Assembly: GCA_031290755.1 (NCBI GenBank)
Contig: JAITMY010000046.1
Span: 1-25,514, forward strand
Direction of reading: 5' to 3'
DNA from: Prevotellaceae bacterium
Lineage (GTDB): Bacteria > Bacteroidota > Bacteroidia > Bacteroidales > UBA932
Length of the DNA stretch: 25,514 nt
The notes below the pieces were generated by a model that had not been told where the DNA came from, did not search any database, and saw only the letters and a list, made by a program, of their open reading frames with translations. This document shows, in pieces, positions 15,447 through 17,702 of this stretch. Within the stretch, counting starts at the first letter, position 1. Each line of letters starts with the position of its first letter. Both the position numbers and the translations under genes were made by a program.

Positions 15447-16214
15447 ATGAAGCTGATTTCCTACAACGTAAACGGGCTGAGGGCCGCTATGGGCAAGGGC
15501 TTGACCGAGTGGCTCAGGGAGGCTAACGGCGACGTGCTGTGCCTCCAGGAGATTAAGGCAACGCAGGAGCAGATTGACGAGGCCGCGCTGCGCGCCCTGG
15601 GCTACGAGCACCTCTTTTGGTACTCGGCGCAGAAAAGGGGCTACAGCGGCACCGCCGTCCTCTGCAAGGCCAAGCCCAACGACGTGCGCTACGGCATGGG
15701 CATCCGCGAATACGACAGCGAGGGGCGCCTGCTCCGCGTGGACTTCGACGCGTTTACGCTCATCTGCACCTACTTCCCGTCCGGCACCTCGGGCGACGAG
15801 CGGCAGGCCTTCAAGATGCGCTACTTAGAGGACTTCTCCCGCTACATCGCCGCCCTGCGCCGCGAAAAGCCCAACCTCATCATCACCGGCGACCTCAACA
15901 TTTGCCACAAGCCCATCGACATCAACCGCCCCGAAAAGCACGAGACCATGTCGGGCTTCCTGCCCGAAGAGCGGGCGTGGTTCGACGGCTTTGTCGGCTC
16001 CGGCTTTGTCGATACGTTTCGCGCCTTCAGCCAAGCGCCCAACCAGTATAGCTGGTGGAGCTTTCGCGCCGGCGCCCGCGCCAAAAACCTCGGCTGGCGC
16101 ATCGACTACTTTCTGTGCACCGCCTCGCTACAGGGCAAGCTCCGAGGCGCAGGCATCTACCCCGCCGCCGTCCACTCCGACCACTGCCCCGTGGCCGTGG
16201 AGGTGGAGGTGTAA
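15447..16214 (+). CDS. xth: Exodeoxyribonuclease III / AP endonuclease
   Basis: ISYNVNGLRA, LCLQEIK, GYSGTAV, DSEGR, GDLNICH, WWSFRA, GWRIDY, SDHCP. Confidence 0.97.
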   Translation: MKLISYNVNGLRAAMGKGLTEWLREANGDVLCLQEIKATQEQIDEAALRALGYEHLFWYSAQKRGYSGTAVLCKAKPNDVRYGMGIREYDSEGRLLRVDFDAFTLICTYFPSGTSGDERQAFKMRYLEDFSRYIAALRREKPNLIITGDLNICHKPIDINRPEKHETMSGFLPEERAWFDGFVGSGFVDTFRAFSQAPNQYSWWSFRAGARAKNLGWRIDYFLCTASLQGKLRGAGIYPAAVHSDHCPVAVEVEV

Positions 16215-16282
16215 AACCTTTCCCCCGATGCTAAATTTCCGAATGGCGAACAGCGGCTTGTGAACCTGAGCTTTAGCGATGC

Positions 16283-16513
16283 CTCTGTGGACTTTTGCGA
16301 GACATCTATAGACTTTTCATAGATGTCTATGAAACTTTGCGAGGCGTCTATGAGCTTTCCGTAGATGTCTATGAAACTTTCCGAGGTGTCTATGAGCTTT
16401 CCGTAGACGTCTATGGACTTTTCCGAGGCGTCTATGAGCTTTCCATAGACGTCTATGGACTTTTGCGAGATGTCTATGAGCTTTCCGTAGATGTCTATGG
16501 AGCTTTGCGGTAC
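16283..16513. repeat. 11 x 21-bp tandem array with alternating A/B units (42-bp higher-order period) and internal palindromes
   Basis: Units start at 16283, 16304, 16325, ... 16493. B consensus GTCTATGAGCTTTCCRTAGAY; A consensus GTCTATG(AAAC/GACT)TTTSCGAGRY. Confidence 0.95.
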
Positions 16514-16517
16514 GCCG

Positions 16518-17702
16518 CTACCTTCCCAGCTCGAGCGCCAGCAGGATGAACGGGCCTACGGCCTTGGCGTCGTTGCTGCGCACCGGCTCGCTGACGTAGT
16601 ACGCGAAGCTGCCGTCGCGGTAGCGCCCGGCGCCGCCTAAGCCCGACACCACGCAGCCCATGGTGAGGCTAATCGTGCCGTTGTTGTTGAGGGTAACGAA
16701 GGTGCGCACCATGCCGTCGAGCACGTCGGCGGCCTTTTGCCGGTAGCTGCCGTCGAGCCAGCCGTGGTTGGCGGCCTTGGCCCAGGCGTAGCCGAACATG
16801 GCGGTGCCGGACGACTCGAGGTAGTTGCCCTCGCGGTCGCCCATGTTGGTTACCTGATACCACGCCTTGGAGTCGGGGTCTTGCTGCTTTTCGAGGGCTT
16901 CGGACAGGCCTTCGAGCACGGCGATGATTTCGGGGCGGCGGGGGTGGTCGGCGGGGAAGTTTTCCAGCACGTCCACCAGCGCCATCATGTACCAGCCCAT
17001 GCTGCGGCTCCAGAAGTTGGGCGAGCATCCGGTTTGCTCGTTCGCCCAGCGCTGCTCGCGGCTTTCGTCCCAGCCGTGGTAGAGGAGGCCGGTGGCGGAG
17101 TCGCGGGTGTGCTTGGCCACCAGCAGCAGCTGGTGCGCCACCTCGTCGTAGAGCGCCGGCTCGCCGAAGGTTTTCCCGTAGAGGCAGAGGAAGGGGGAGG
17201 CCATGTAGAGGCCGTCGAGCCACATCTGGTGGGGGTATATCTGCTTGTGCCAAAATCCGCCCTCGCTGGTGCGCGGGTGGGTGCGCATCTGCTCGCGGAG
17301 CAGCGCGGCGGCGTTCTTGTACTTCACCTCGCCGGTTTCGCGGTAGAGCGCCAGCAGCGTGTTGCCGCCGGCGATGTTGTCGATGTTAAACTTTTCGGGG
17401 CTGTAGGTGCGAATGGCGTGGCCGCTGTCCACCACCATCGTGTCGCCGAAGCTGCGCACGTAGTCGAAGTACTTTTGGCTGCCCGTGGCCTTGTACACGC
17501 GGTACAGGGCGTAGGTTTCCAGCCCCTGGCAGTAGCCCCACTTGGGGGCTTTGGCGAAGTCGAGCATCCAGCTTTCGGGGTAGCGCGCCATTTCGGAGTC
17601 GGCCATTCGCGCCGACCATTTTTCGCCGAGGCCGGAGCAGCCTGTGCCAGCGGCCAGCAGCGTGGCGGCTAAGGCAAGCGTAGCGTTGCGTAGTGTCATC
17701 AT
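16518..17702 (-). CDS. Glycoside hydrolase family 105/88 (unsaturated rhamnogalacturonyl/glucuronyl hydrolase, YteR-like), lipoprotein
   Basis: Lipobox (AGTGC); FNIDNIAGG, EGGFWHKQIYPHQMWLDGLYM, GLLYHGWDES, NFWSRSMGW, YLESSGTAMF, NDAKAVGPFI. Confidence 0.92.
   Translation of the reverse strand: MMTLRNATLALAATLLAAGTGCSGLGEKWSARMADSEMARYPESWMLDFAKAPKWGYCQGLETYALYRVYKATGSQKYFDYVRSFGDTMVVDSGHAIRTYSPEKFNIDNIAGGNTLLALYRETGEVKYKNAAALLREQMRTHPRTSEGGFWHKQIYPHQMWLDGLYMASPFLCLYGKTFGEPALYDEVAHQLLLVAKHTRDSATGLLYHGWDESREQRWANEQTGCSPNFWSRSMGWYMMALVDVLENFPADHPRRPEIIAVLEGLSEALEKQQDPDSKAWYQVTNMGDREGNYLESSGTAMFGYAWAKAANHGWLDGSYRQKAADVLDGMVRTFVTLNNNGTISLTMGCVVSGLGGAGRYRDGSFAYYVSEPVRSNDAKAVGPFILLALELGR

Follow-up and report, generated by a model that had tools for sequence, protein, structure and literature searches.

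The nearest published elements to the array described here are BrickBuilt, with 23-nt units, and MITE464/PgRS, with 41-nt units, both minisatellite elements of P. gingivalis (Klein et al. 2015, PMC4596501). Each is spacer-less and intergenic, is equipped with a leader and a tail, occurs in 10-20 copies and has promoter activity (PMC4596501). The earlier record of minisatellites of 21-23 or 41-42 nt in Bacteroidales was from P. gingivalis alone, and there they were treated as the cargo of MITEs. The array considered here is located in a 25,514-nt stretch of DNA, hereafter the window, which is the whole of contig C140 of a metagenome-assembled genome (MAG) of 1.28 Mb in 200 contigs that is 51% complete. 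The closest homologues of the xth gene in the window are from 'Prevotellaceae bacterium' MAGs of termite guts, which indicates that the host is a termite-gut member of the Bacteroidales.

The initial annotation described eleven 21-bp units in exact phase, alternating between a hairpin type (B) and a second type (A), and placed them between convergent xth and GH105 genes. Each part of this description was borne out, the identity of the neighbours by Pfam (Table 1). The interval 16290-16509 was called by TRF as 10.1 copies of period 21 and, as the better call, as 5.1 copies of period 42 with 88% matches and a score of 283, and in a layout of 21-base rows the phase was kept exactly over 11 rows from 16283 to 16513. 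The four B units beginning at 16346, 16388, 16430 and 16472 conform to the consensus GTCTATG-AGCTTTC-CRTAGAY and a further one is degenerate. The A units with which they alternate read GTCTATG-RRNYTTY-SCGAGRY, having the left arm in common with B and a right end of GCGAGRY or CCGAGGY. The inverted repeat, with arms of 11 nt, extends into the adjoining units. The palindrome claimed for a B/A junction was found at 16445-16456 as ATAGACGTCTAT, and the capacity of the units to form hairpins and palindromes was likewise confirmed. The GC content of the array is 45% compared with 59% for the window. A CRISPR, already dismissed in the initial annotation, is indeed excluded by units that abut without spacers, and a scan with Rfam 15 returned chance matches to miRNA models alone, at 20-25 bits against cut-offs of at least 90.

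Table 1. Features of the xth/GH88 intergenic region of the window. Minus, as applied to the array, denotes the 'sense' orientation of homologous gene-linked arrays.
Feature	Position	Strand	Evidence and remarks
xth-type exonuclease III gene	15447..16214	+	Pfam PF03372 (Exo_endo_phos); native stop codon 16212-16214 marks the left edge of the element
Non-repeated 'leader' remnant	16215..16282	-	Pairwise alignment; blastn of flanks; homologous to the C200 spacer between array and start codon
21-bp tandem array, 11 units, 42-bp super-period	16283..16513	-	TRF; 21-base row layout; 83% identity to C200:8012-8217
Hairpin (B) unit GTCTATG-AGCTTTC-CGTAGAT	16346..16366	+	Row layout
Further B units	16388-16408, 16430-16450, 16472-16492; degenerate one 16304-16324	+	
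Promoter-proximal end of homology	16505..16517	-	GGCGTACCGC (minus strand) vs CCCGTATTCCGC at C200; GH88 stop codon next, 16518-16520
GH88/GH105-fold unsaturated glycuronyl hydrolase gene	16518..17702	-	PF07470, residues 29-392 of 394; stop codon is the right boundary of the element

Together, the array and the leader remnant take up all 303 nt that separate the xth stop codon from that of the GH88/105 gene. The ends of both genes coincide with those of their orthologues or Pfam domains, and xth orthologues in relatives stop at the same residue. Neither a sigma-70-like promoter nor a hairpin-plus-U terminator was found in the spacer, and no TAnnTTTG box was present between 15388 and 17469. The order rsgA-xth is conserved in relatives, and the gene following xth was different in each relative examined, a result indicating that the junction downstream of xth is prone to rearrangement; comparison of synteny with the relatives did not reveal an empty site. 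Spacers following xth in relatives hold unrelated repeats (L004:4770-5000, L005:4765-4800), comprising ~50-bp units with CCCC-N-GGGG hairpins in one relative and a run of the heptamer GGTTAAT in another.

Support for the assembly, a point raised in the initial annotation, was obtained for both edges of the array and not for its middle. Logan contigs from one termite-gut run enter the array from either side, extending to 16357 and starting again from 16419, with no differences from the MAG. Since no Logan contig of that run crosses 16358-16418, the copy number of the array is that of the MAG assembly alone. A look-up of the exact xth protein yielded no record of another assembly of the locus, and the locus was found in no RNA run.

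A second locus carrying this array was identified by blastn against the same MAG, on the opposite strand of contig C200 (Table 1). The alignment runs ~70 nt past the array, through the leader, and reaches the initial codons of the gene on C200, an ORF encoding 222 residues and starting MGKNFIP. At C200 the array is situated between this ORF and a Bacteroidetes-type promoter (TTG, 19 nt, then TACCTTCA). Collinearity of the window minus strand with the C200 module starts ~10 nt ahead of the first unit, takes in array and leader and extends to codons 2-5; the leader remnant contains a conserved GCTAAA...TTTAGC pair together with 14 nt matching those codons. The leaders are ~72% identical, with differences that are mostly transitions and a GC-richer sequence in the window, which indicates that the two copies did not separate recently. 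The GH88 stop codon is ~5 nt beyond the opposite end of the homology. On the plus strand, the 9-mer GCTACCTTC at 16515-16523 overlaps the GH88 stop codon and matches the -7 box region of C200 exactly (GCTACCTTCA); it is at the same distance from the array as at C200 in the opposite orientation, and the match, noticed after the fact, may be chance.

The window copy thus has the 21/42-bp period and the homology into the leader that characterize the gene-linked arrays described below, and does not lie between a -7 box and an ATG. Since it is devoid of a -7 box, has GGG on the minus strand at the position homologous to ATG (16224-16226) and has no gene, the xth stop codon abutting the leader, the copy is classed as an orphan derivative and not as an intact module. 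The inclusion of gene-start sequence in the orphan indicates that descent was from a gene-linked copy to the orphan and not the reverse. Comparison of the sequences therefore leads to the conclusion that the window array is probably a copy of a 'phased-palindrome leader array' orphaned by the loss of its promoter, start codon and gene. It would have descended from a complete module of which the closest relative is that on C200 in the same genome.

The initial annotation had raised the prospect of dispersed related copies, and these are present in the genome, though in the case of this unit at two loci alone, both of them direct tandem arrays, in the half-assembled genome. A blastn search of 60 relatives with the array and its flanks matched the genome of origin alone, and a pattern scan of 185,579 species genomes with the unit gave no matches outside that genome. 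The window array has unit words in common with the loci L106 and L135, and its unit family recurs at L106, the protein of which is 75% identical.

A neutral minisatellite or an assembly artefact, with no functional module in its ancestry, would be in agreement with the frequent breaks of MAG contigs at arrays and with the lack of Logan contigs spanning the middle of the array. This explanation is considered very improbable, based on the agreement of an independent assembly with both edges, the differences among the units themselves and a homology to the second locus that takes in the non-repeated leader.

The possibility of a small protein born of the repeat was also evaluated. As stated in the initial annotation, one frame is open on each strand, and this is the case at both homologous loci; the openness is automatic since the 21-nt unit is free of stop codons. 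The candidate on the plus strand, an ORF of 84 residues at 16295-16549, has a TTG start, lacks an A-rich leader and overlaps the GH88 gene; the open minus frame has no start codon. The variable columns of the 42-bp alignment are distributed 5/5/5 over the three codon positions of the plus-strand ORF, Pfam matches at the C200 copy were limited to spurious low-complexity ones, and sister arrays cannot be coding repeats because periods of 23 and 41 break the frame. The proposed protein was rejected on these results and its existence is regarded as extremely improbable. Public gene calls include 'hypothetical proteins' of 67-139 residues that lie over arrays opposite the 222-aa gene (minus strand of L130:2177-2440, L131:2100-2432, L132:2043-2462 and L134:1967-2170), and these are almost certainly artefacts of stop-free units.

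The gene downstream of the C200 array (C200:8298-8963) and a gene on contig C17 (C17:707-42) encode 222-aa proteins that are 79% identical, and both genes are preceded by a -7-like box and a 21/42-bp array. The C17 array (C17:806-986), located between a canonical TACCTTTG box and the paralogue, differs in sequence from that of C200 and has the same 7-7-7 architecture. More distant paralogues on C21, C87 and C198 have 21/42-bp arrays directly upstream. At C183:4829-5161 a 21/42-bp array with GGCTAAGCA and GGCTAAAGCC units is followed by a match to residues 169-208 alone of a C21-like protein and then by the contig end, an arrangement that may represent a truncated or rearranged module.

No match to the 222-aa protein was found in Pfam, PHROGs, NCBIfam or the sequences of the PDB. 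The AlphaFold2 model, with a mean pLDDT of 88, consists of an N-terminal helix bundle and a C-terminal fn3-like sandwich. Foldseek searches of the PDB and viral libraries matched fn3 domains alone, the helical domain returning no known DNA-binding fold. A profile search retrieved 5,218 cluster representatives at 50% identity, nearly all of 218-225 residues. The loci of the family that were analyzed came from termite-gut metagenomes, Candidatus Ordinivivax and five other Bacteroidales genomes with GC contents of 32 to 56%.

The best autocorrelation was at lag 21 or 42 in 20 of the 21 family loci with upstream DNA, which represent several Bacteroidales families; two distant members add nothing to this result since their contigs end 48 and 175 nt upstream of the gene. 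The array ended 45-110 nt before the ATG in most of the 21 loci. Among 16 whole loci, totalling 73 kb, 13 had their sole 21/42-bp array scoring at least 100 within ~450 nt upstream of the gene. By comparison, loci from 80 other Bacteroidota (601 kb) and 399 kb of sequence from a same-genus genome (GC 46%) were free of such arrays at a score of at least 80. A scan of metagenome contigs with the protein profile confirmed no loci. Array words followed the protein tree in part: the pairs L108/L131, L106/L135 and L104/L133 shared words, and the arrays of C200 and C17, with proteins 79% identical, had none in common. Unit sequences varied between loci and the 21-bp period was fixed. The phasing of two helical turns per unit, to which the initial annotation drew attention, is therefore what matters, since it is the period and not the sequence that is conserved over long evolutionary distances.

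The exact TAnnTTTG box, wherever present, was located 5' of the array and never between the array and the ATG, and a TAnnCTTA variant common to several close orthologues was located 10-20 nt before the first unit. Since the -7 boxes stand 5' of the arrays, the arrays appear to lie in the initially transcribed region. The intact module is accordingly pictured as a -7 box (TAnnTTTG, or a close variant, TAnnCTTA for example) followed by the 21-bp array, often paired to 42 bp, a leader of 45-110 nt and the ATG, in which the sequence of the unit would turn over between loci and its 21-bp period would be retained. The array of such a module may serve as a cis-regulatory platform in the initially transcribed region.

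Close members of the family have a stem-loop, CCGCTCCCC-GAAA-GGGAGC, ~20 nt upstream of the ATG (L106:735-760, L108:2955-2975, L131, L135 and C17:735-752), with compensatory variants GTTCCT/AGGAAC, a T run before it and an A-rich stretch after it. The leader of the subfamily comprising the window and C200 is of a different type, with the GCTAAA...TTTAGC pair in its place. In Candidatus Ordinivivax streblomastigis (L104:57-2636) the module follows an HTH_17 gene, a gene for a Toprim-type primase of 686 residues and a 63-aa ORF, a setting that looks like part of a mobile element. At other loci the module stands alone among housekeeping genes, those for ClpB/HSP20, FAD synthase, YicC and trigger factor.

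The anatomy of the class suggests a function for the array, for which action at the level of DNA is slightly favoured over action as a hairpin in leader RNA. At the DNA level, inverted repeats would face the same side of the helix at intervals of two or four turns, where a dimeric or oligomerising factor would bind them. The single invariant of the arrays, a period of 21 bp (42 bp for DUF6261), was placed on this side. Several arrays contain zero-spacer palindromes such as AAGTAATTACTT or CGATACGTATCG and, since palindromes of this kind make poor RNA hairpins, they were counted in favour of DNA. A comparison of sense and antisense folding for 26 gene-linked arrays, in which the sense strand folded better in 11 and the antisense strand in 15, revealed no advantage of the sense strand, a result that argues against selection on the structure of the sense RNA. 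No G.U strand bias was found across the 26 arrays; the orphan alone shows bias. The inverted repeats of C200, which are of the form 12-5-12, have the compensatory variants AGACA/TGTCT, AGGCG/CGCCT and CGCC/GGCG, and the zero-spacer junction palindromes at this locus are imperfect. Compensatory changes in both arms are a classic sign of base pairing, in RNA or single-stranded DNA, and not of a protein operator, and they count against the DNA-level reading. The location of the arrays downstream of the -7 box may also be counted toward base pairing. The predicted structure of the adjacent 222-aa protein is without a match to a DNA-binding fold.

A role at the present site was considered in which the array was kept as a 3'-end hairpin element that stops or stabilises the converging xth and GH88 transcripts, similar to REP/BIME elements without REP ancestry. 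Such co-option is compatible with an orphan origin and differs from it solely in claiming a present function. The array fills the entire spacer between two stop codons that has no canonical terminator, in agreement with this role. The plus-strand RNA, which is sense for xth and antisense to the orientation of the family, is predicted to fold at -113.9 kcal/mol with z = -7.5 compared with z = -2.75 for the minus strand. All 10 of the 10 non-Watson-Crick positions in the four hairpins with 11-nt arms are G.T on the plus strand, and many 23-bp arrays of the genome likewise start 0-22 nt from stop codons. The z value and the G.T pattern hint that the array serves xth as a 3'-end structure. However, no U tracts follow the hairpins, and the G.T bias goes back to some four independent substitutions, multiplied as units were duplicated, and might be due to mutation biased by strand. 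The suggestion in the initial annotation of a terminator or RNA-stability element has the strong plus-strand fold in its favour and the absence of a canonical hairpin-plus-U terminator against it, and co-option of this kind is judged possible and on balance unlikely. The units of the orphan are still 88% identical to one another, which together with plus-strand hairpins fully preserved through G.T pairs could mean retention for local use and not a relic. If the array is an orphaned leader array, as preferred here, it would have no module function at this site and at most would supply the two converging transcripts with a 3' end rich in hairpins. Transcripts reading through from GH88 would carry the array in the orientation that is sense for the family.

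Analysis of the whole genome with TRF recovered ~56 arrays, that of the window included, whose base period is 21 bp (also 41, 42 and 63) or 23 bp (also 46). Their units fall into many unrelated families, most units having a short inverted repeat, and nearly all of the arrays are intergenic. Many contigs end in them; the arrays fragment short-read assemblies and are probably under-counted. Contig ends within or beside arrays were recorded at C54:1-208, C8:1-103, C177:1-100, C61:1-76, C87:1-92, C26:3510-3708, C200:18453-18631 and C75:17927-18009, and the metagenome contigs L136 and L137, on which family genes are located, end in the same manner. A second class is formed by ~19 arrays of hairpin units of 23 bp (or 46 bp) in several sequence families (C100:2194-2349, C103:7262-7361, C110:2398-2475, C116:145-252, C168:1202-1300, C182:2771-2886, C85:3519-3630 and others). 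Many of these begin 0-22 nt from the stop codons of housekeeping genes, none adjoins the 222-aa or DUF6261 families, and their period is that of the 23-nt unit of BrickBuilt in P. gingivalis. Repeats of 69-72 bp and multiples thereof inside large genes (C48:2931-3511, C91:1554-1813, C158:1526-1778) encode leucine-rich repeats of the BspA type (IPSSVTSIGxxAF). Upstream DNA was readable for six DUF6261 genes of the genome, and a 42-bp array was present there in every case. Comparison of DUF6261 with the 222-aa family by hhalign revealed no profile similarity (probability 0.5%), and no publication was found that describes palindrome arrays upstream of DUF6261 genes.

The initial annotation also proposed a REP/BIME-type mosaic, that is, an element spread by a RAYT transposase of the IS200/IS605 type, for which the palindromic units, the dispersal of related copies in intergenic DNA and the many hairpin-repeat families of the genome might be cited. 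This origin was not sustained and is deemed most improbable. The units are head-to-tail direct repeats and not alternating inverted REPs, this unit is present at two loci alone, and the array is linked to the leader of a gene. Searches with PF01797 (Y1/RAYT) gave no matches in the genome, a result that does not prove absence since the genome is 51% complete; a PF05635 gene was likewise not found in the half-assembled genome.

In a MITE of the BrickBuilt type, array and leader would have been inserted as a unit between xth and GH88, and the gene-linked copies would also be insertions. P. gingivalis, itself a member of the Bacteroidales, has comparable minisatellite elements that bear leaders (PMC4596501), the leader is common to the two loci here and the flanks of other arrays share modules. 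The window element has the spacer-less tandem units, shared leader and intergenic location of that class. It does not have IS5-like terminal repeats: the terminal inverted repeat GAGACCTTTGCA had no match in the window with up to 2 mismatches allowed, and flanking inverted repeats and target duplications were not found. Furthermore, the homology takes in the first codons of a gene, and the position of the arrays relative to the gene family is conserved across Bacteroidales families where their sequence is not, a pattern in keeping with vertical linkage and not with repeated insertion. Insertion as a MITE is therefore thought improbable, and descent from a gene-linked leader array remains the preferred origin.

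A broader proposal is a two-part recognition module distributed across the Bacteroidota, in which a factor, the adjacent protein or a partner, would read the phased palindromes of its own array in DNA or in processed leader RNA, and gene-less copies would be retained as decoys or sponges for titration of the factor or as insulators separating converging genes. The pairs proposed are 21-bp arrays with the 220-aa helix/fn3 family and 42-bp arrays with DUF6261. The proposal is regarded as doubtful; if it is true, the dozens of arrays in the genome would constitute a regulatory network and not junk. New here are the link between 21-bp arrays and the 5' leaders of a large gene family that has no name, which parallels the arrays of DUF6261, and an orphan copy that fills a convergent spacer. 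Gene-less copies are seen to survive as complete intergenic spacers. An oddity of sequence thereby becomes a testable pairing of a cis-element with a gene. The results also serve as a warning for annotation, in that small ORFs inside the arrays are artefacts and the arrays are points at which contigs of these genomes break.

Plasmid iterons and the centromere sopC of F (12 x 43 bp with an inverted repeat per unit) are phased protein-binding arrays, and the arrays described here resemble them in the direct repeats at two or four helical turns, the short inverted repeats and the location beside the gene served. They differ in being chromosomal and in many copies, with no partition or replication gene nearby and with a partner protein that has no match to a DNA-binding fold. 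The type III toxin-antitoxin system toxIN is composed of a promoter, tandem 36-nt RNA repeats, a hairpin and the toxin gene, and the order of promoter, transcribed tandem array, hairpin and gene is the same in both. In contrast to toxIN, the partner is a helix bundle with fn3 and not an endoribonuclease of the ToxN/AbiQ/CptN type (no match in Pfam, NCBIfam or PHROG), and no strand bias of RNA folding was seen. The REP/BIME elements of E. coli and Pseudomonas are likewise short intergenic hairpin repeats, often at the 3' ends of genes, with possible roles in termination and mRNA stability. REPs are single or alternating inverted units dependent on a Y1 HUH transposase, whereas the units here are direct and tandem, no RAYT was found and the ancestry is gene-linked.

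The arrays of DUF6261 genes have a like layout, in which a palindrome-bearing tandem array is followed by a short leader and the ATG, any -7 box is upstream, and the period is fixed with a free sequence; the window array differs from them in belonging to another protein family, in a base period of 21 bp as opposed to 42 bp and in the loss of its gene. With BrickBuilt and MITE464 the likeness extends to taxonomic order, spacer-less imperfect units of ~21-23 or 41-42 nt, a strictly intergenic location, a leader common to the copies and a unit sequence restricted to the species, and transcription through or from the P. gingivalis elements has been reported (PMC4596501). BrickBuilt has a tail segment, terminal inverted repeats of the IS5-like type and one unit family in 19 copies (PMC4596501), whereas here no terminal inverted repeat was found, this unit is at two loci and there are dozens of unrelated unit families. 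Finally, the main feature of the arrays described here is that they are tied to the start of one gene family, a linkage not reported in the paper on the P. gingivalis elements (PMC4596501).
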